Below the pieces are notes generated by a model. The model saw nothing but the letters and a program-made list of their open reading frames with translations, was not told the origin of the DNA and ran no database searches. From the NCBI GenBank assembly GCA_965246885.1, contig OZ251992.1:352001-416000 (forward strand): 64,000 nt of DNA, written 5' to 3'. Position 1 is the first letter of the stretch; each line of letters starts with the position of its first letter. Below, piece after piece: positions 17,828 to 28,933 of this stretch. Source of the stretch: Abditibacterium sp. (GTDB lineage Bacteria > Armatimonadota > Abditibacteriia > Abditibacteriales > Abditibacteriaceae). The position numbers were made by a program, and so were the translations under genes.

Positions 17828-19111
17828 TCAGTGGTCGTCGGGCGAAGCGGCGAGCGAATCTATCAACTGCTTTTTCCACGCGGCGCGCTGGCTTTGATAA
17901 GCCGCTTCGTCCACTTGGCCCGCCTCGAAAGCGTCGTCGAGATCGGCCAAGTGTTGCACCAACTCGCGGCTGTCGGGCGTAAGAGTCGGTGCGACCGCGA
18001 AGCCGTTGAGCGGGGCAAAGCCCGCGTTTTCGGCGCCGCGCGCGGAAGTGTGCGAAGAAACGCTTGCACCCGTGCGGCGTTCCGCCCGTTTTGGTTTGAG
18101 TAGCGCAACGGGCAAGAACAAACACAGCGCGCCGACCAACCCCGCGAAGCCCCAGAACAGCCCCGACACGGGCCGCGACACCTTCACGTCGAGCATCTCG
18201 CCCGCCGGAACCCCCGCCGCGTCGCCGTTGGGCGCGCCAACCGCGTTCACCAAGCGCGTTTCGGTTTTGCCGTCAACGGGCAGGTTCATCGGCGCTTCGG
18301 CGCCCAGTTGCGGAGCCGAGACTTGCAACTCCTTGTCGTCGGTCTGGCGGGCCACAAAGAAGAACTTGGTCGGGTTGGTCGCTTCGCGCGACAAATCTAC
18401 CGTCTTGCCCCAAGGCAATTTAGAAGGCCAGTCCATATCGTAGGAGAAGATGACGGCGTTGAACTGCCTCGGCTCTCCGTAGGCGCTGGGCACGATGGGC
18501 TTGACAATGCCCCAACCATCGTTAGTTTGCACCATCTGGGCGTTGACCTTGGGGTCAATCTTGACGTTGCGGGCGCCCTTGGGCACGTTGAGCATCACGG
18601 AGACATGGCGCGGGCCAAAGCCAAGGTAGGTGAGGTTAGAGGGGTTCTCGACGACGATGCGCTCGATGACGTGCAAGCCGGTCGGGGTGGACTTGATGGC
18701 CAAGTGGTGCACTTGGAAATCAAGGGGAGCGGCGTTGGGCTGCGTGGTGGTGTCGAAGACGAGCAACTCCACCTTTTGCGGGTTGACGTTGAGGCCGAGT
18801 TGCTTGAGGTTGCCCGCGCCGTCGTAAGCGACGGTAGTGTAATCGTAGCCGCCGTGCGGAATGTTGGCGAACAGCAGATCGCTTTTGCCCAGTTCGCGCG
18901 GCGCAAAGCGGAAGCGCCCCCCCGCGTCGGTGGTGGTGGTGTCCACGACGGTTTTGGCTTTCCCGTCGGGCGTTTGGATAAGCTGCACCGGCGCACCGGG
19001 CAGCAGGGCGTTTTTATGCGAGCCGTCGCGCGCAATGCCGGAAATTGCGACCGGCGCGGCAGAGGCGATGGAGACGCTTAATAGAAGGGCGGTGAGAAGT
19101 TGGAATTTCAT
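17828..19111 (-). CDS. Secreted/membrane protein with carboxypeptidase-regulatory-like N-domain, C-terminal TM and CcmI/SHOCT-like tail
   Basis: Signal peptide; TTTDAGGRFRF; TM FWGFAGLVGALCLFL; LADLDDAFEAGQVDEAAYQSQR. Confidence 0.65.
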   Translation of the reverse strand: MKFQLLTALLLSVSIASAAPVAISGIARDGSHKNALLPGAPVQLIQTPDGKAKTVVDTTTTDAGGRFRFAPRELGKSDLLFANIPHGGYDYTTVAYDGAGNLKQLGLNVNPQKVELLVFDTTTQPNAAPLDFQVHHLAIKSTPTGLHVIERIVVENPSNLTYLGFGPRHVSVMLNVPKGARNVKIDPKVNAQMVQTNDGWGIVKPIVPSAYGEPRQFNAVIFSYDMDWPSKLPWGKTVDLSREATNPTKFFFVARQTDDKELQVSAPQLGAEAPMNLPVDGKTETRLVNAVGAPNGDAAGVPAGEMLDVKVSRPVSGLFWGFAGLVGALCLFLPVALLKPKRAERRTGASVSSHTSARGAENAGFAPLNGFAVAPTLTPDSRELVQHLADLDDAFEAGQVDEAAYQSQRAAWKKQLIDSLAASPDDH

Positions 19112-19112
19112 A

Positions 19113-19451
19113 TCAATCAGGGGAGGCCCCCCGTTTGCGCCGCTCCCGCGCGACCCAAATCTCCGCTTCCGCCGCCAAGTCAGCGCGGCGCGCGCGGCGG
19201 AAGTTCCAGATGAGGCGCTCGACGTTGAGGAGCGGCGGAAGTGCGGACGGCGCGGCTTGTTCGAGGAGCAAGCGGCGCCCTTGCCATTCGGCGTCGTCTA
19301 TTTTTTCGAGGTCGCGGTCGAGGTCGAGTTCCTCGACGCCGGGAACATAATCGGTTGAGCGCAGTTCGCGCTTGGATTCACCCGCCCACAAGGGCATGAG
19401 GATATACGCGAGCGCGGCGAGGCCGAGCAATAGGGGAAGCAGAACGGTCAC
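19113..19451 (-). CDS. Small CcmI-like membrane protein
   Basis: GTGA overlap with ccmF stop; TM then EELDLDRDLEKIDDAEW. Confidence 0.6.
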   Translation of the reverse strand: MTVLLPLLLGLAALAYILMPLWAGESKRELRSTDYVPGVEELDLDRDLEKIDDAEWQGRRLLLEQAAPSALPPLLNVERLIWNFRRARRADLAAEAEIWVARERRKRGASPD

Positions 19452-21541
19452 GCGACCAACTCCCGTTCGCGCTCGGCTTTGGGCGCGGAGATGGCGGCGC
19501 GGCGGGCCGGGTCGCGGCGCGGCGGGATGAAAGCGACGAGGGTGCCGATGATGAAGAACGCTTGCGAGACCCAAATCCACATCACGAGCGGGTTCATATA
19601 CGCCTTGATGGACGCGGTGTTGTCTTTGGTATCGAAGCCGTCCAAGACGAGATATAGGTCGTTGGCGGGCGTCGAGCGGATGGCGGGGCGCCGCGCCGAC
19701 TGGCCTGCTTCGTCCTGCGTTTGTGGGTTGGCCGCCGTTGCCGCCGCGAAGAAGTCAATCTTGGGGCGCATCGGCGCGTCGTTGGCCGTCACTTGGCCGT
19801 TCGCGTCGAAGACGGTCACGCGCGCAGTGATTTGGTCGCGCAGGTGCTCCTCCAACTTGGCGGGCCGCTCCAAGCCGTCGAAGCGCAAGACGTATTCCGA
19901 GTCGCGGTTAGAATCCTTAACGCGCATCTGCTCGCCTTTGTGGAGCAAGATGGAGGGCGTCTCGACTTTGAACATGGAGCTGCCGGTGAGTCCAACGAAC
20001 ATGACGGCGACGCCCAAGTGCACGATGTAGCCGCCGTAGCGCGCGGGATTAAATGAGATAAGGTCGGCTCCGGCATCCACGACAGAGGAGCCGCGCTTTT
20101 GGCGCAGAACGCGGACACCGCGCGCGAACTCCCAGCCAATCGCCAGAAACACGAAGAACGCGAGGGTAAACGCCGTCGCCGCTCCCGTCCGCCAGCGCCC
20201 TAAGTACCACAAGACCGGAGAGAACGCAATCGCCCACAGAACGGGGAACTTGAGCACGCGCCACGCCCCGGCCAGCGTCGTCTTCTTCCAAGCGAGAAGC
20301 GGGCCTACCCCGGTGAGCGCCAGAAGTGCCAAGCCCATCGGTGCAACGGTCGCGTTGAAGTAGTCCTTTGACACGTTTACCCGCACGTTGCCGAAAGACT
20401 GGGAAAGCGTCGGATACAGCGTGCCCAGCAACACCGCGAGCGTGCAGCCAAGCAGCAGGTAGTTGTTGAGCATGAACGCGCCCTCGCGCGAGAGCGCCGA
20501 TTCGATGCGCGCGTCGCTCGTAAGTTCCGCGCGGCGCCAGTAAATCAGCGCCATCGCCGCCACGAGCATGAAGCCCAAGAACCACAGGAAGTAGGTGCCG
20601 ATGTTCGACTCGGCGAAAGCGTGCACGCTTTGCACGACGCCCGACCGCGTGAGGAAGGTGCCGAACACCGACAGCAAAAAGGTCAGCGTCACGAGCGCGA
20701 TGTTCCAGTTCTTGAGCAGGCCGCGCCGCCCTTGCAGCATGATGGAGTGCAAAAACGCCGTCGCGCACAGCCAAGGCATCAGGCTCGCGTTTTCGACGGG
20801 ATCCCACGCCCAGTAACCGCCCCAACCCAGCGTCTCATACGCCCACACGCCGCCCAACACGATGCCGACGGTCAGCACAATCCAAGTGAACAGCACCCAG
20901 CGCCGGATAAGAGTTACCCAAATCTCATCGAACTTGCGGTGAAACAGCGCCGCGACCGCAAAAGCGAACGGCACGGTGCAACCGACATAGCCCGTATACA
21001 GCGTGGGTGGGTGAATCTGCATCCAATAGTTTTGAAGCAGGGGATTCATGCCGCGCCCATCGGCGGGGATTTGCTCCATAACCACCCAAGGCGACGCCGC
21101 GAACGCGACCAACCCCGCGAAAAAGAGCGTCACGAGCGCGATAACCGAAGTGGCGATGGGTGAGAGTTCCTGCCCCGACCGCCGCCCGCCCTTGGACACC
21201 AAGATGCCATACGTCGCTAAGACAAACGTCCACAAAAGGAGGGAGCCGCCCTGCCCGCCCCACAGCGCGGAGATTTTAAAGGGGAGCGGTTGTGCCTTGG
21301 AGGAATTCTCGGCGACATAGGCGAGCGCGAAGTTGTTCGTCAGAAACGCAAATATCAACAAGGCGCACGCCGACGCGATAAAGGCCCACGTCACGAACGA
21401 AGCGTTGTGCGCCGCTTCGAGCCACGCCGCCCGCTTGGGAGCGGCGCGCGGGTGATACGACCACGCCGTCGCGCCGATGTTCAGCGCGCAACCGAGCATC
21501 GCCAGCAGAATGAGCCAATGCCCCAAGGAAGCTAAAAGCAT
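19448..21541 (-). CDS. ccmF: Cytochrome c-type biogenesis heme lyase CcmF
   Basis: LWGGQGGSLLLW, GMNPLLQ, IHPP, WAYETLGWGGYWAWDPVEN, LTRSGVVQSVHAF. Confidence 0.96.
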   Translation of the reverse strand: MLLASLGHWLILLAMLGCALNIGATAWSYHPRAAPKRAAWLEAAHNASFVTWAFIASACALLIFAFLTNNFALAYVAENSSKAQPLPFKISALWGGQGGSLLLWTFVLATYGILVSKGGRRSGQELSPIATSVIALVTLFFAGLVAFAASPWVVMEQIPADGRGMNPLLQNYWMQIHPPTLYTGYVGCTVPFAFAVAALFHRKFDEIWVTLIRRWVLFTWIVLTVGIVLGGVWAYETLGWGGYWAWDPVENASLMPWLCATAFLHSIMLQGRRGLLKNWNIALVTLTFLLSVFGTFLTRSGVVQSVHAFAESNIGTYFLWFLGFMLVAAMALIYWRRAELTSDARIESALSREGAFMLNNYLLLGCTLAVLLGTLYPTLSQSFGNVRVNVSKDYFNATVAPMGLALLALTGVGPLLAWKKTTLAGAWRVLKFPVLWAIAFSPVLWYLGRWRTGAATAFTLAFFVFLAIGWEFARGVRVLRQKRGSSVVDAGADLISFNPARYGGYIVHLGVAVMFVGLTGSSMFKVETPSILLHKGEQMRVKDSNRDSEYVLRFDGLERPAKLEEHLRDQITARVTVFDANGQVTANDAPMRPKIDFFAAATAANPQTQDEAGQSARRPAIRSTPANDLYLVLDGFDTKDNTASIKAYMNPLVMWIWVSQAFFIIGTLVAFIPPRRDPARRAAISAPKAERERELVA

Positions 21542-21632
21542 GAGAAAAAGGATTGATAGAAGAAACGCCAAAGGAGCGACGCCGCGCCGCTCCTCTTCTT
21601 ATGGGTTCAAACCGGGCGGTCACATCGCCCGC

Positions 21633-22088
21633 TCACGACGACGGCGCGCTCACCATCTTCCCTTGCACCGCCCCGCCGCCCTCGCCCGCTTTGTATTTGG
21701 AGGGGCACTTGGTGAGCACGTGCTCTGCCCGCAGCACTCCGGGCGCGATGTAAGTGCCGTCTATTTGCACCGGCCCACCCGCGCGGAACGAATCGGGGAG
21801 CGCGTCGGTATACGACACGGCGACGGCAACCTTGCCTTCAACGACCTGAAAGTGCGACTCGCGCACCACACCGTCGGGCGTTTGGCGCGGCACGAACTGG
21901 ACGGGCGCCTTCCCGACGAAGCCCACCACGCGCAAATGGCGCCCGACGAACGAATCGCCCCCGCCATCCTTGGCGCGTAGCTGCGCGACCGGCACGTTTT
22001 GCGACGTGCCGCTCTGGAGCGACGACACCACCAAAAACCCCATCGCCGCCAAGATGAGCGCGCCACCCGCGAAAAGCCGTGTTTGCAT
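21633..22088 (-). CDS. ccmE: Heme chaperone CcmE, CxxxY type
   Basis: N-terminal TM, LPDSFRAG, VLTKCPSKY. Confidence 0.9.
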   Translation of the reverse strand: MQTRLFAGGALILAAMGFLVVSSLQSGTSQNVPVAQLRAKDGGGDSFVGRHLRVVGFVGKAPVQFVPRQTPDGVVRESHFQVVEGKVAVAVSYTDALPDSFRAGGPVQIDGTYIAPGVLRAEHVLTKCPSKYKAGEGGGAVQGKMVSAPSS

Positions 22089-22819: not shown

Positions 22820-24700
22820 CTACATCCCTACCAAGCGCGAGGGGCGGATGCGAAAGAACAGTTGAAACCCGGTATGCCGCGTGCCGCCGTAGATGCCGCT
22901 TAAAGAAGCGGGGTTCTGGTCGAAGGTTGCTTGCGCGCCGATGCCGACATCTAAGCCTTGGCCGTGCTTCACGTCATGGACGAAGCCCACCGCGAGCGAG
23001 TTGACCGGGAACAGCTGGTCTTGGAAGTTGGCAGGGGGCAACACTAACTCCCCACCCGACTTCTGGACGCGCTCGAAGCGCCCGTAGACCGTGTCCGCGC
23101 CGCGCTGCACGTTCGACTCGAACAGGAACGAGTTGGACGCGCCCCCGCCGAATAGAGCGCGCGAGTCGTTGTTGCGCCCGAAAACGAAGGAGTTCGCCCA
23201 GTTCGCGTCGCGTCCCAACGGGCGGTTGTAGATAAGCGAAGCCGTCGTCCGCCCGCGCCTCGTGACTTCCGGGTCGGCGGGTTCGGGGCGGCGGAGCGAG
23301 CCATACGAGACTTGCAGCGCCAGATCGCGCGTCGGGTTCCACGAGGCGCGGCCCGCAAAGGAGTCGAGGCGCGGCGTGTCGAAGGAATAACGGTTCTCGT
23401 TCGGCTCTTCGCCTTTGAAGGCGCTGCCTTCCAGCTTAAACTTGCCCGTCGAAAAGCCCGCCGTCAGCACGCCAAAGGTGATGTGCGTCGAGTCCTGCCA
23501 ATGATGGCCGAGCGGCGCGTCGGGGTTGTCCATCGCTGACAGGCGGTGCATAAACGCGGGCGGGCCAAGCGCCGGTTCGCCGGGGTAGCCGACATATAAG
23601 GAGAGCGAGTTGGTCTTCCCCACGCGCCGTGAGTAGGTCGCCGACAGTTCGGACACGAGGTCGTGCGGGTGCTGGCGGTCGTGAATCGGGCGGTTGCGAT
23701 ACGACTCGCCGCTTTGATAAAGGAGCGGATAGCCGCTTCCGCCTTCCAAGATGGGGTCGAGCGACAGCATGACGTGAGCGCCGACCTGCCCATTCTTGCC
23801 GAAGGGTTTCGACGCCATGCCCATGAACATCGAGGGCGCATCGAAGCGGGAGCGCGTGTCGAACGAGGGCTGGCGCCCGCTCCCAATACGGGTGTAACGC
23901 GGAAAGATGTCGCCGTGCAGCATCAGCATGGTGTCCCCGCGCATCTTCATCGCCGCATAAAGCGGCGACGAATCGGGAACCCAAGAAGTGCCCGAACTTT
24001 CGCGCGCCATCGGGTCATTCAAGTCCACCGAGGAGCGCATATTCATCGCGCCCATCTTCATACCGCGCATATCCATCGCGCCCATCTTCATACCGCCCAT
24101 GTCGCCGTCTGGCGCGGGCGAAGCGGGGGGCGAAGCGGGCGCGGCGCCGACGGCAACCGTGCCAACCATGCCGCCTTTGGCGTGGCCGCGCACGGAGCAA
24201 AAATAGGTGAAGGAGCCAACAGCCGAAGCGTGCAGGGTTATCTCTTCGGCGTTATATTTCCCCTCGTCGCCGTGCGCGATTTTGGCGGTGCCGGGCGCGT
24301 CCTTCACATCGGGCGCGATGGGGAAGGGCAACTTCGGGGAACCGAAGTGGATGTCGTGGAACATGTCGCCGTCGGTGTTGACGAACAGAACGGTCAGCGT
24401 CGCGTCTTTGGGCACGACGAGCGCCGGGTTGCGAAGTCCCGCGATACGGTAGGACAGCATGTCGTCTTCCGGCCCGGTCGTCACCACGAGGCGAACTCTG
24501 GCGGTTTGAAAGGTGAGGGTCTTGCCATCGGCGGAAGCGTCGCCGGGGGTAGCTTCGCCTTGCAAGCGGGCGAGATCGGTGGCGGCGATAGTTTTGGCCG
24601 TGCGGTCTTGGAGTTGAAAAGGAGCCGTCGCGCCGTTTTGGGCGAAGGCAGGGATGGAACAAAGGGTCGCGGCGAGGGCGACAAACGGGAGTTTTTGCAT
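22820..24700 (-). CDS. Secreted fusion: rusticyanin-like cupredoxin, Met-rich linker, putative outer-membrane beta-barrel
   Basis: Signal peptide ending AFA; MFHDIHF and YFCSVRGHAKGGM (C-x4-H-x4-M); two GMKMGAM repeats; SGTSWVPDSSP, DRQHPHDL, GHHWQDSTHI; alternating beta-strand pattern to the C-terminus. Confidence 0.75.
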   Translation of the reverse strand: MQKLPFVALAATLCSIPAFAQNGATAPFQLQDRTAKTIAATDLARLQGEATPGDASADGKTLTFQTARVRLVVTTGPEDDMLSYRIAGLRNPALVVPKDATLTVLFVNTDGDMFHDIHFGSPKLPFPIAPDVKDAPGTAKIAHGDEGKYNAEEITLHASAVGSFTYFCSVRGHAKGGMVGTVAVGAAPASPPASPAPDGDMGGMKMGAMDMRGMKMGAMNMRSSVDLNDPMARESSGTSWVPDSSPLYAAMKMRGDTMLMLHGDIFPRYTRIGSGRQPSFDTRSRFDAPSMFMGMASKPFGKNGQVGAHVMLSLDPILEGGSGYPLLYQSGESYRNRPIHDRQHPHDLVSELSATYSRRVGKTNSLSLYVGYPGEPALGPPAFMHRLSAMDNPDAPLGHHWQDSTHITFGVLTAGFSTGKFKLEGSAFKGEEPNENRYSFDTPRLDSFAGRASWNPTRDLALQVSYGSLRRPEPADPEVTRRGRTTASLIYNRPLGRDANWANSFVFGRNNDSRALFGGGASNSFLFESNVQRGADTVYGRFERVQKSGGELVLPPANFQDQLFPVNSLAVGFVHDVKHGQGLDVGIGAQATFDQNPASLSGIYGGTRHTGFQLFFRIRPSRLVGM

Positions 24701-24786
24701 GGTAACTGGGTTTGGGAAGCGCGCAAAAGGCACGCGGACGCCCGCTCAAGGGAAGCCCAGAGCGGAAAGGTCATCGGGACAAACAG

Positions 24787-25224
24787 TTACAATGCGGGTG
24801 GGCCGCGCGGAGGGGTCTGAGAATCGAAGAGTAACGGCGGCGGTCGCTTGGGTGCGGTCGCGTACATGACGCGCGACGTCGGGAACTGCCGCGCCGTCCA
24901 AACCGGCGCCGCGACGGGCAAAGCGAGGTGGAACGACGACGTCCCCGCCGCTTCTTTAACCGGCACAAATGGGGCGGGATGCGAGCGCAAGCAACCGCAC
25001 GTCGCGCCCGCGACTTTGCCCTTGAACGCCGCTCTGTGAGCGCACATCGGGCACGCCGGTTCTTTGACAACTCGGACGCAACGCGGACAATGCGCCGCCA
25101 AAGCGTGGGCTGTTGGCGATAGAGCCGCACCCCCGCCGAAGACGAGCGATGGTAGCACCATCATCCAGATGGAAAGCAACGCGAGTAGCGCGTCCACTCG
25201 CAGGCGGCGCGGCGGCGGGGGCAT
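24787..25224 (-). CDS. Cys-rich leader ORF (DUF2946/CruR/CutF-like) with C-terminal RGPP motif
   Basis: Hydrophobic N-terminus, CPRC, CPMC, CGC, ends PPRGPPAL; 86 nt upstream of the cupredoxin fusion on the same strand. Confidence 0.72.
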   Translation of the reverse strand: MPPPPRRLRVDALLALLSIWMMVLPSLVFGGGAALSPTAHALAAHCPRCVRVVKEPACPMCAHRAAFKGKVAGATCGCLRSHPAPFVPVKEAAGTSSFHLALPVAAPVWTARQFPTSRVMYATAPKRPPPLLFDSQTPPRGPPAL

Positions 25225-25366
25225 ATCGAACACCTTTCAAACGCGCATGGGGGCGCTCTGTTCCCTGTCCGGGGTTATCCCTCTTCATCGCGGCGCCGAA
25301 GTTGCAATTTCTCTGACACCCGCGCCGCACGGCTAAACTCGGCGCTCTTGGGCTTGGCCCTTCTTT

Positions 25367-26365: not shown

Positions 26366-26400
26366 ACGGCGTTCGTCCGCCCACCGCCTCCCCACACCGA

Positions 26401-26526
26401 AATCGGGGAGGAAATTACGCCATGCGGGGAGGCGGTAGTGCCGTGCGGGGAGGAATTCTTCCCGTGCGGGGAGGAAATCACGGGACGAGGGGAGGAAATC
26501 ATCGCGTGCGGGGAGGTATTTATCCC
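26401..26526. repeat. Six-unit 21-bp-period array, core GGGGAGG
   Basis: GGGGAGG at 26405, 26426, 26447, 26468, 26489, 26510. Confidence 0.9.
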
Positions 26527-26972: not shown

Positions 26973-27055
26973 ACCCGTCAGTGTGCCACGCCGATAAATG
27001 CGGAGATACGTCGCTGGAGGGGAACGAAGCGGCGGCGGCGGGTTCTGAATGGGGC

Positions 27056-28933
27056 ATGACTTCCGGTTGGCGCGTGTTGGGACTCTTGTTGCTCCTCTGC
27101 TTTGCGGGGGGGCCGCGCGGCGCGTTCGCTCAGTCGCCGGTGACGTGGAGCGCGAGCGCACGAACGAAAGATGCGCGTGCCGGGGAAGTGGCGGTGGTGG
27201 CCTTGCGCGCCCAGATGCAAGCGGGCTGGCACATTTACGCGCCGACGACTCCGGCGGGGGGGCCAATCGTCACCACCATCGAAGTTGCGCCGGGCGCGAA
27301 GTTAGCACGCGCGGGCAAGACCACGCAGCCCTTGCCACTGCGCAAGTTCGACAAAGGCTTTGGCATCGAGGTCGAGACGTTCGAGAAGGACGTGACTTTC
27401 GGGGTGCCGCTTAAGCTGGCAAGCGACGCGAAGGGGAGCGTCAAAGCGGCGCTCCGGGTGCGTTTTCAAGCGTGCAACGCGCGGGTATGCTTGCCGCCCA
27501 AGACGGTGACGGTGCCGTTTACAGTTCAGGTGGCGCCGGGCCAAGCGCGCCCGGAGCGCCAGAAAGTCGCGCTCCCGCCCGTCTTTCCCCCGACTGCGGC
27601 GGCCAAGCCCGTCGCTATCAACAAGGGCGGCGGCAGTCCGCTCGCGTTTCTGCTGACGGCGTTTAGCGCGGGGTTTTTGGCGCTTTTGACGCCGTGCGTG
27701 TTTCCGATGATTCCCATCACGGTCTCGCTCTTCACGCCCAAGAACGGCGAGAAGCGCTCTCTGGCGGGGCCGCTTGTTTATTGCTTGGGCATCATCAGCA
27801 CGTTCACGCTTGTGGGCGTGCTCGTGTCCCTCTTGTTTGGGGCGGCGGGGCTGACGTTGTTCGCGGCGAACCCGTTTGTCAACCTTGCGCTCGCGGCGCT
27901 CTTCATTACGCTCGCACTGAATCTGTTCGGGGCATTCGAGATTTTCGTGCCCGCATCGGTGTTGAACCGCGTGTCGCCGCGCGGCAAAGAAGGGCTGCTC
28001 GCGCCTTTTCTGATGGGGCTGGCGTTCACGCTCACGTCGTTCACCTGCACCGTCCCGTTTGTGGGCAACACCCTTGTTTCCGCCGCGACGCAGGGCGTGT
28101 GGCTTCCGGCGTTAGGGATGCTCGCGTTTTCGACGGCTTTCGCCCTGCCGTTCTTCGGTCTCGCACTGTTTCCGGGCGCCCTCGCCAAGTTGCCGCGTTC
28201 GGGCGAGTGGCTGGTGTCGGTCAAAGCGTTCATGGGCTTCTTGGAGTTGGCGGCAGCGCTCAAGTTCTTGCAAGTCGCCGATCAAACGCTGGGCTTGGGG
28301 TTGATTACGCGTCCGGTGTTTCTGGCGATTTGGTTTGCGCTCGCGCTTGTGGCGGGGCTGTATTTGTTGCGCGTCTTGCGCTTGGCGAAGGATTCGCCGG
28401 AGCAGAAAATCGGCCCCTTGCGGCGCGTCTTGGGAGCCGCGACACTTTGTGTCGCGGCATGGATTCTGTCCGCTTTTAATGGCGGCTCGCTCCACGACCT
28501 GAACGCGTATCTGCCGCCGCGCGATTATGGGATGCGCACGGAGGCCAAGTCGCAGTGGGTCAAGAACGACTTGGACGGTGCCCTCGCGCTGGCAAAAGCG
28601 CAGAACAAGCCGCTTCTCATCAACTTCACCGGCAACGCTTGCACGAACTGCCGCTTGATGGAAAGCGACGTGCTGCCCACACCGGAGGTAACGCGCGAGT
28701 TGGGCGCGTTCGTGGCGGTGGAACTGATTACCGACGGGAGCGACCCGAAGTCGCGCGCGTTTTCGGAGTATCAGCAGCAGCATTTCGGCACCATTGCCAT
28801 TCCACTATACGCGGTGCTGGCGCCCGATGGACAGATACGCGGGCAATTGGCGGGCTTGGAGCGCGACCCCGACAAGTTCGCGGCCTTTCTGCGGGAAGCG
28901 CGCCCCGCGACGAGGGTGGCACAAGCGAATTAA
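27056..28933 (+). CDS. dsbD: Protein-disulfide reductase DsbD-like (N-domain, TM domain, thioredoxin domain)
   Basis: GWHIY, QACNARVCLPP, LTPCVFPMIP, SFTCT, ACTNC. Confidence 0.88.
   Translation: MTSGWRVLGLLLLLCFAGGPRGAFAQSPVTWSASARTKDARAGEVAVVALRAQMQAGWHIYAPTTPAGGPIVTTIEVAPGAKLARAGKTTQPLPLRKFDKGFGIEVETFEKDVTFGVPLKLASDAKGSVKAALRVRFQACNARVCLPPKTVTVPFTVQVAPGQARPERQKVALPPVFPPTAAAKPVAINKGGGSPLAFLLTAFSAGFLALLTPCVFPMIPITVSLFTPKNGEKRSLAGPLVYCLGIISTFTLVGVLVSLLFGAAGLTLFAANPFVNLALAALFITLALNLFGAFEIFVPASVLNRVSPRGKEGLLAPFLMGLAFTLTSFTCTVPFVGNTLVSAATQGVWLPALGMLAFSTAFALPFFGLALFPGALAKLPRSGEWLVSVKAFMGFLELAAALKFLQVADQTLGLGLITRPVFLAIWFALALVAGLYLLRVLRLAKDSPEQKIGPLRRVLGAATLCVAAWILSAFNGGSLHDLNAYLPPRDYGMRTEAKSQWVKNDLDGALALAKAQNKPLLINFTGNACTNCRLMESDVLPTPEVTRELGAFVAVELITDGSDPKSRAFSEYQQQHFGTIAIPLYAVLAPDGQIRGQLAGLERDPDKFAAFLREARPATRVAQAN

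Follow-up and report, generated by a model that had tools for sequence, protein, structure and literature searches.

A cysteine-rich leader ORF with a putative RGPP arrest motif and a predicted start-hiding helix ahead of a rusticyanin-porin-like gene in Abditibacterium

A 64,000-nt stretch of an Abditibacterium genome (the window) holds an open reading frame (ORF) of 145 aa, P0001, on the minus strand (24787 to 25224), followed by a gene, P0002, for a rusticyanin-like domain fused to a porin-like barrel. Taking the ORF and its position, a predicted helix over the start codon of P0002, and an inferred stall with Pro142 in the ribosomal P site jointly, we conclude that P0001 is very probably an arrest leader with a start-hiding helix. 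The whole proposal goes further: a stall at the RGPP motif would melt the helix, and the target would be switched on by high periplasmic copper. Our analysis leaves this fuller version evenly balanced between right and wrong. That P0001 is not regulatory, or not a gene, is very unlikely. With 2 contigs that total 3.55 Mb, the genome is 92.7% complete. The NCBI taxonomy lists the family Abditibacteriaceae under Abditibacteriota; GTDB places the family in Armatimonadota. A genome of the same family has the same barrel and leader.

The sequence-only reading had described P0001 without giving a strand. The ORF is open on the minus strand, to which all coordinates below refer unless stated otherwise; in the plus-strand reading the same interval is closed by stop codons. 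P0001 was counted from an ATG, and the ORF list also holds an alternative GTG start at 25233 (148 aa). The features named in that reading (a hydrophobic, export-like start, CPRC, CPMCAH, CGC, and a terminal PPRGPPAL) were all found in the protein. The hydrophobic segment follows an RRLR n-region and spans residues 12 to 30 (25135 to 25191), where the best 19-residue Kyte-Doolittle mean is 2.09. By hydropathy it is predicted to be a Sec signal or an N-terminal anchor; by eye, the basic n-region, hydrophobic core, and an Ala-x-Ala near residues 39 to 43 would suit a cleaved signal or an uncleaved anchor. The protein contains six Cys and five His. Its Cys clusters are CPRC (Cys46 and Cys49, 25078 to 25089), CPMCAH (Cys58, Cys61, and His63, 25036 to 25053), which aligns with the CC/CxxC cluster of relatives, and CGC (Cys76 and Cys78, 24991 to 24999), which lies 61 residues ahead of the arrest Arg.

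Toward the C terminus, an upstream di-proline motif, RPPP (residues 127 to 130, 24835 to 24846), is followed by PP at residues 138 and 139 and again at 142 and 143. The last pair belongs to the putative RGPP arrest motif (residues 140 to 143, 24796 to 24807), which sits two residues from the end of the protein. The predicted stall register puts CCA (24801 to 24799) in the P site and CCC (24798 to 24796) in the A site; it was taken from the reported toeprints of ApcA, ApdA, ApdP, and CruR (PMC12992588). The ATG of P0002 (24700) lies on the same strand, 86 nt past the leader stop, exactly the gap given in the sequence-only reading. Because the gene on its other side is divergent, P0001 is the first gene in its unit. 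A promoter scan of the minus strand ahead of the leader gave no sigma-70-like site, and the stretch from leader to target gave no terminator-like one. Antisense to the leader, on the plus strand at 25064 to 25091, is a promoter-like TTGACA-16-GACAAT, 276 nt ahead of the divergent gene, with 0.5 such sites expected by chance. P0001 begins, unusually, with Met-Pro-Pro-Pro-Pro (25210 to 25224), which would retard the first steps of elongation and was not observed in relatives.

Domain searches divided the 626-aa P0002 (22820 to 24700) into a signal peptide, a rusticyanin-like domain, a Met-rich linker, and a barrel. The cupredoxin domain (residues 52 to 184, 24149 to 24547) matched TIGR03095 at an E value of 2.9e-16 and rusticyanins in the PDB at about 1e-11; at 60 bits against an equivalog cut-off of 146.7, it is rusticyanin-like only. 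Its C168-x4-H173-x4-M178 is a type-1-like copper-ligand motif. The linker has 14 Met in residues 195 to 260. The domain of about 400 residues that follows (225 to 626, 22823 to 24028), with conserved HDRQHPHD, HR, and HH motifs, belongs to no Pfam or NCBIfam family, and P0002 matched no TonB-receptor family in either database. From a fold model and its homologues, it appears to be an unnamed porin-like beta-barrel. The model, built from 12 sequences, was all beta (pLDDT 63.5, pTM 0.67), and its best folds were trimeric porins (Foldseek E 1.4e-9; Z 20.9, rmsd 3.9, 304 residues aligned). Against this model of middling confidence, OprC came at rank 50 with Z 10.0, compared with Z of about 20 for the trimeric porins.

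Barrel homologues were numerous, with 7,117 matches among 8,000 scored candidates and the barrel present in 83 of the 401 genomes of the phylum sample. Their N-terminal module varies: among the top 120 homologues, 53 had the rusticyanin-type motif and 38 an HMBD motif. The rusticyanin-like domain was a separate gene near the barrel at loci L117, L122, L134, and L137, with an ArsP-type permease between the two at L122; the fusion is thus one of several arrangements. At own-phylum loci such as L143, L154, and L159, leader and barrel were often separated by a gene for a YtkA-domain protein of about 400 aa, and 38 of 79 own-phylum regions had a tblastn match.

To score co-occurrence, we combined 79 of the 92 non-self barrel places in the own phylum (contig-edge and fragmentary places, and one that overlapped, were left out) with the best 80 of 523 confirmed barrel loci from GTDB. 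Removal of 2 duplicates and of 15 loci with <2 kb upstream left 142 loci. The leader filter required 80 to 230 aa, a hydrophobic start, at least 3 Cys, and [RHQ][AG]PP near the end; the H and Q variants were admitted only after HAPP had been noticed in Verrucomicrobiota. A leader-type ORF on the same strand, no more than 3.5 kb upstream of the barrel homologue, was found at 98 of the 142 loci, which, as in our other locus counts, are kin and thus not independent. They came from three phyla (own phylum, 47/74; Acidobacteriota, 16/20; Verrucomicrobiota, 35/48), and the remaining 44 loci had no leader inside 3.5 kb. At the same 142 loci the antisense control gave 1 ORF and the control motifs gave 0. 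A fresh metagenome set, scored with essentially the same filter, had a leader at 47 of 53 loci, 44 of them with HAPP, and both controls gave 0; another 27 of its 80 loci were too short to score. Within the own family, 6 of 27 genomes bear the barrel, and all 6 have the leader: four leaders adjoin the barrel gene or a preceding rusticyanin gene, and two head a longer gene run. The co-conservation upstream of barrel homologues that the sequence-only reading looked to as a check therefore came out in its favor.

The filter by itself is not specific. Applied to the whole 3.55-Mb genome it passed 4 frames, so that a single-strand stretch of 3.5 kb would be expected to hold 0.002, and the control motifs also passed 4. 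P0001 is above chance on two other grounds: it stands ahead of the barrel in 98 of 142 loci, and it ranks first when scored with a leave-one-out profile. With a profile of 40 own-phylum leaders from which P0001 had been withheld, its frame ranked 1 of 33,977 six-frame segments (E 4.6e-5; next, 0.016). An Acidobacteriota-only profile failed to single it out (rank 8, E 7.6), and P0001 was not among the matches of a Verrucomicrobiota-only profile, so the kinship of leaders across phyla rests on their common build and position. A profile of 56 leaders matched 792 proteins at E of ≤0.001. The best 150 of these all had at least 3 Cys, and 144 ended in RAPP, HAPP, or RGPP, a count that is partly circular because the profile itself contains the motif. 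A direct protein search with P0001 gave no homologue at E of ≤1 among 284 candidates, and Pfam and NCBIfam searches of the leaders gave nothing above cut-off. The codon score of the leader was -0.108, compared with 0.304 for the target gene and -0.081 for a plus-strand frame; this is lower than in ordinary genes, and its codon usage is not gene-like. Two sets of contigs that cover P0001 listed no differences from it and thus held no variants on which selection could be scored. In the Atlas look-up, P0001 had a recognition of 2521 and a first match of 0.96.

The other leaders are just 14 to 27% identical to P0001, yet their build is constant. The export signal is followed by Cys clusters, two or three in number, by a linker rich in Pro and, in most leaders, by another PP; the terminal motif falls 1 to 7 residues ahead of the stop (87 loci with an assignable next start). 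Among 98 leaders, CC occurred in 86, CxC in 48, and CxxC in 10. The last Cys pair was 56 to 70 residues from the motif in 83 of the 98 (61 in P0001), and most of the remaining 15 had a single Cys at 67 to 71. A last pair at 43 to 47 residues was seen in none of the 98 leaders and in none of 144 scorable profile matches. Another PP, no more than 25 residues away from the arrest motif, was present in 41 of 47 own-phylum and all 35 Verrucomicrobiota leaders and in 2 of 16 from Acidobacteriota. At the titled Verrucomicrobiota loci, all 35 leaders carried HAPP, after a conserved LDTGPP...SFAEL block.

Folding of the intergenic RNA, which had been suggested along with the ORF, returned a structured element. 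The last two leader codons, the stop codon, and 7 further nt (24780 to 24795) form the 5′ arm of a predicted closing helix, assigned from RNA folding and covariation. Its 3′ arm, from folding and duplex energy, consists of the target start codon and the bases before it (24697 to 24714), and two predicted hairpins make up the multibranch interior (24715 to 24779). By this prediction the target start codon pairs with the last codons of the leader, which would hide it. Compared with shuffled sequences, the fold had z scores of -2.97, -3.59, and -3.48 in three fragments and -2.50 and -2.24 in two others. The target start has no Shine-Dalgarno sequence, as is usual in this genome, where 13% of 1,602 starts reach -6 kcal/mol. 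The duplex of the leader's own 5′ arm with its own start region was computed at -15.3 kcal/mol. No shuffled arm of 1,000 did as well, and neither did most foreign start regions (7/499 did) or foreign arms (15/499 did). Among ordinary gene pairs, 41 of 499 reached this value and 21 of 499 showed a cognate excess of at least 7.

We applied the pairing test to the 87 of 99 leaders with an assignable next start. Cognate pairing was stronger than non-cognate pairing at 31 of 43 own-phylum loci (-11.0 versus -7.6, P = 9e-6) and at 11 of 15 Acidobacteriota loci (P = 0.010); the 499 ordinary gene pairs had no cognate excess (235/499, P = 0.45). In Verrucomicrobiota the test failed, with the cognate pairing better at 17 of 29 loci (P = 0.30) and a median opening gain of -0.2. 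Because the start-hiding helix is unsupported there, the coupling of leader to target may differ in that phylum. The helices of the three closest loci line up on a common UAA/UUA; 91% of cells are paired versus 28 to 50% in slid controls, and 4 of 12 pairs had changed on both sides versus 0 to 1. This compensatory count was matched by 16 of 500 shuffles and comes from three sequences, too few for a real probability and the same from which the structure was derived. When a ribosome covering -12 to +14 relative to the P site was modeled, opening the start region cost 9.3 to 10.5 kcal/mol at the six codons before Arg140 (9.6 at Pro139), 4.7 at Arg140, and 2.5 at Pro142. In the same model the helix is opened just as much by a ribosome that terminates two codons later; the switch must therefore rest on dwell time.

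We propose that P0001 is a cis-acting leader that is exported cotranslationally. Judged from published RGPP peptides, the ribosome translating it would be arrested at RGPP, with Pro142 occupying the P site. The stalled ribosome would melt the predicted helix over the start codon, and the target would be translated. At the stall the Cys clusters, with the last pair about 61 to 67 residues before the motif, would be just reaching the periplasm. LepB is reported to fold in the periplasm when the peptidyl transferase center is about 70 residues away (10.1101/2021.02.06.430026), and with the leader spacing this suggests a Cys pair just leaving the translocon. Folding or disulfide formation would then pull the chain free unless metal bound the thiols, as proposed for CutF, and the rusticyanin-fused porin-like protein would be made when periplasmic copper is high. 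The least certain step is that the ligand would be copper and that its excess, not its scarcity, would prolong the stall. RGPP is described as the strongest arrest motif in several peptide contexts, and RAPP-type arrest as resistant to EF-P (PMC12992588); most RAPP-like stretches from ordinary Escherichia coli and Bacillus subtilis proteins are reported not to arrest efficiently (PMC10987492). Of the posttranscriptional switch put forward in the sequence-only reading, the regulatory arrangement has gained from co-conservation and the structured RNA, while stalling and copper sensing are still inferred.

That reading had also likened P0001 to CruR and CutF, both taken as DUF2946-like. The likeness held in build, but DUF2946 membership did not survive the HMM search and the motif spacing. 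P0001 gave no match to PF11162 (gathering score, 23.7 bits) at E of ≤1, and none of 49 leaders did so at E of ≤0.05. Among the best 150 profile matches, one scored 22.8 bits, below the cut-off, and a genome search gave nothing over the cut-off and nothing at the leader locus. An Atlas cluster with 23% DUF2946 was listed at 0.93 for P0001, with only 114 shared features. In DUF2946 the distance from CxxC to RAPP is described as kept at 45 residues, within one or two (PMC9426467). Other DUF2946/CruR traits are present in P0001: two CxxC, a C-terminal RAPP-class motif, an export-like start, and first place in the operon. CruR (Bp2923 of Bordetella pertussis, the DUF2946/PF11162 prototype), for which arrest has been reported (PMC12992588), likewise has 145 aa, an export-like N terminus, a Cys motif, and a RAPP-class motif 2 to 3 residues from the end, and it is the first gene ahead of an outer-membrane barrel. 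P0001 differs in its Cys-to-motif distance (61, and 78 and 90 for the CxxC motifs, versus the conserved 45), in a target that is porin-like and not TonB-dependent, and in control that looks translational where that of CruR is chiefly Rho-dependent.

CutF of Rhodobacter capsulatus resembles P0001, as judged on build, in its <150 aa, export-like start, several Cys, and C-terminal di-proline, in a same-strand gene <100 nt away whose initiation region is hidden by a stem (a predicted one in P0001), and in a metal-related target. By the published rules for CutF-like proteins, of which 5,334 were reported in 2,804 proteomes (PMC9973294), P0001 has ≤150 aa, PP in its last 15 residues, and a same-strand downstream gene at <1,000 nt; prediction and covariation indicate a stem over the initiation region that a stalled ribosome could reach. 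The two differ in motif (RGPP, RAPP-type and reportedly EF-P resistant, versus the EF-P-relieved PPP of CutF), in Cys pattern (CxxC, CxxC, and CxC versus CxxxC plus two Cys), and in target (an unnamed porin-rusticyanin fusion versus a multicopper oxidase). Unlike that of CutF, the predicted P0001 helix covers a start without a Shine-Dalgarno sequence together with the leader's own stop codon. The sequence-only reading credited P0001 with more Cys motifs than "single-CxxC prototypes," which was overstated: CutF has its CxxxC and two more Cys (bioRxiv 10.1101/2025.02.05.636593), CruR is described with a further semiconserved Cys (PMC9426467), and the usual pattern in the P0001 family is CC plus CxC.

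A motif near the C terminus of a small exported protein is also reported for ApdA, ApdP, SecM, and the RAPP/RGPP ("RQH") set of Streptomyces lividans (PMC12992588 and PMC10987492), and the logic of a stall that melts a stem is common to our proposal, SecM-secA, and uDF_RQH-secDF2. Compared with the RQH set, P0001 has a downstream gene that is not sec or yidC and paired Cys clusters at a fixed distance, and, unlike in that set, HAPP is fixed in the Verrucomicrobiota branch (35/35); HAPP arrest has been reported for one secDF leader (PMC10987492). CopL of Xanthomonas and Stenotrophomonas and CzcI of Cupriavidus are, similarly, described as small genes with Cys codons that act in cis and stand first in metal-resistance operons (PMC9973294). 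None of the leaders scored over cut-off against CopL and CzcI family models, and 1 of 56 touched CzcI at E 0.0068. Many phyla are reported to have RAPP/RGPP leaders ahead of genes for TonB or Cu functions (PMC12992588). We found no description of the P0001-type leader family or of the barrel family in the literature searched, whose supplements may hold members; the three supplementary files of PMC9426467 contained no Armatimonadota or Verrucomicrobiota terms.

The sign of the response was read from gene context, and the copper-resistance neighbors of homologues favor copper excess. A gene for a P1B-ATPase (8), a CsoR-like protein (11), a multicopper oxidase (6), or CusB (2) was present in 20 of 79 own-phylum regions, a count without a baseline, and the filter found a leader in only 10 of these 20. 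The three plasmid homologues were all by metal-resistance genes, two of them by Cu-type P-ATPases. The Pontibacter homologue lies two genes past a copper-translocating ATPase; the two in Sphingobium lie opposite a MerR-family gene and ahead of DUF305, one with a TIGR01511 ATPase nearby. The locus in the window has no resistance genes as neighbors, and a CsoR family search of the 92.7% complete genome found none. According to bioRxiv 10.1101/2025.02.05.636593, the stall turns the target on in CutF and CruR alike, and copper causes the stall in CutF and ends it in CruR.

A CruR-like logic is accordingly the first alternative to weigh, and we consider it unlikely but by no means negligible. With the same leader and helix, the ribosome would stall when copper is scarce and the porin would import copper for cuproproteins; metal would free the stall, the helix would close, and Rho would terminate transcription. 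CruR has a motif of the same class, RAPP, and is reported to head an import operon (PMC9426467). The target here is porin-like by model and fused to a cuproprotein, import is the more natural role for a porin, and the genome encodes Rho. The RNA is also C-rich, the 78-nt windows from 24860 and 24740 having C minus G of 19 and 18, in the top 1.3% and 1.8% genome-wide. However, the first of these is rich in Pro codons and the window from the stop codon is ordinary (top 26%), the neighbors with a clear sign are resistance genes, and the Cys-to-motif spacing is 61 where that of CruR is 45.

It is rather improbable that the leader senses a cue other than copper, such as periplasmic disulfide formation, Sec export, or Zn, Ag, or Hg. 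The targets bear Cu-type modules (rusticyanin, cupredoxin, HMBD, YHS, and YtkA), which argues against such a cue. Downstream of the target, at 17828 to 22088, are ccmE, ccmF, a short gene, and a gene for a 427-aa protein with a weakly CcmI-like end, with a Uma2-family gene on the other strand between the target and this group; on the other side, at 26981 to 28933 on the plus strand, are a DsbD-like gene and two ferritin-like genes. A link of the leader system to ccmE/ccmF and dsbD was rejected, since they are beside barrel homologues in none of the 79 own-phylum regions, which likewise counts against a disulfide cue.

We think it highly unlikely that P0001 is a free periplasmic metal-binding protein, a chaperone or buffer cotranscribed with the porin, in which the Pro motif is incidental. 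An export signal, six Cys, and five His would suit such a protein, and a chaperone role was the first conjecture for CutF (PMC9426467). Against it, the motif is fixed 1 to 7 residues from the stop at 87 loci while the body has drifted to 14 to 27% identity, RGPP is reported to be strongly avoided in ordinary proteins (PMC12992588), and the stall site and the predicted helix are in matching register. That P0001 is an ORF left open by chance in a GC-rich and Pro-rich stretch, for which the missing direct homologue (0/284), the missing family, and the poor codon score could be cited, is scarcely credible given its first rank of 33,977 under the leave-one-out profile, the co-occurrence at 98 of 142 loci, the 792 profile matches with their partly circular motif count (144/150), and the Atlas recognition of 2521 with a first match of 0.96.

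The leader system, then, is CutF-like in its working and has a motif of the class found in CruR, ApdA, and ApdP; the class is already large, and no new regulatory principle is involved. There is a serious possibility, which we lean slightly against, that these leaders form a separate, unnamed family of transmembrane thiol/metal sensors in Armatimonadota, Acidobacteriota, and Verrucomicrobiota. In such a family a ruler of about 60 to 67 residues would set a Cys pair where the translocon opens into the periplasm when the ribosome stalls, resistant to EF-P, at RGPP, RAPP, or HAPP. The sensors would control copper porins, rich in His and Met and with interchangeable periplasmic Cu modules, that form a large family not yet described, and the same porins would be under an unrelated CxxC/poly-Pro leader in Sphingobium. 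If so, stalling leaders would have been recruited convergently to a single metal channel. PMC12992588 names as open the question of how a RAPP-type stall is released or strengthened by a ligand, and the present leaders offer a clean test case, with a Cys-to-motif ruler of 61 to 67 residues versus the 45 of DUF2946, a strong RGPP, and a short helix with natural compensatory variants. They also point to a function, probably copper handling in hard-to-culture soil bacteria, for a barrel family whose members number thousands and which neither Pfam nor NCBIfam names.

In two Sphingobium plasmids, ORFs annotated as hypothetical proteins (L286:10950-11288 and L288:10967-11311) have a signal, one CxxC, and a terminal GPAPPPP and stand two genes ahead of the barrel homologue; they are CutF-type leaders missed by PF11162. 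Comparison of the Sphingobium ORF with P0001-type leaders by hhalign gave a probability of 1.2%, no detectable kinship, and it had no DUF2946 match. Extra leader-type ORFs, pointing away from or toward the barrel and heading other genes, were found at L119 (7183 to 7707, minus strand) and L131, the latter heading a CusB-like run on the opposite strand. As these ORFs head nonbarrel genes, the leader family appears to serve other metal operons also.

A second leader was found in the same genome as P0001, on the minus strand (G000:C1:2226306-2226767; L195:7307-7768). It is a His/Cys-rich protein of 153 aa that ends in RGPP plus 7 residues, with a hairpin of -18 kcal/mol directly past the motif and just ahead of the next start, which follows 15 nt on. 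It heads genes for an AhpC/TSA redoxin, a protein of 309 aa that is unnamed and has CxCGC near its N terminus, and a TlpA-like redoxin, and the barrel-leader profile hardly sees it (rank 142). In the window, past a gene of 182 aa, about six degenerate 21-nt units beginning CGGGGAGG lie at 26404 to 26526, with a 14-nt inverted repeat at 26383 to 26436.
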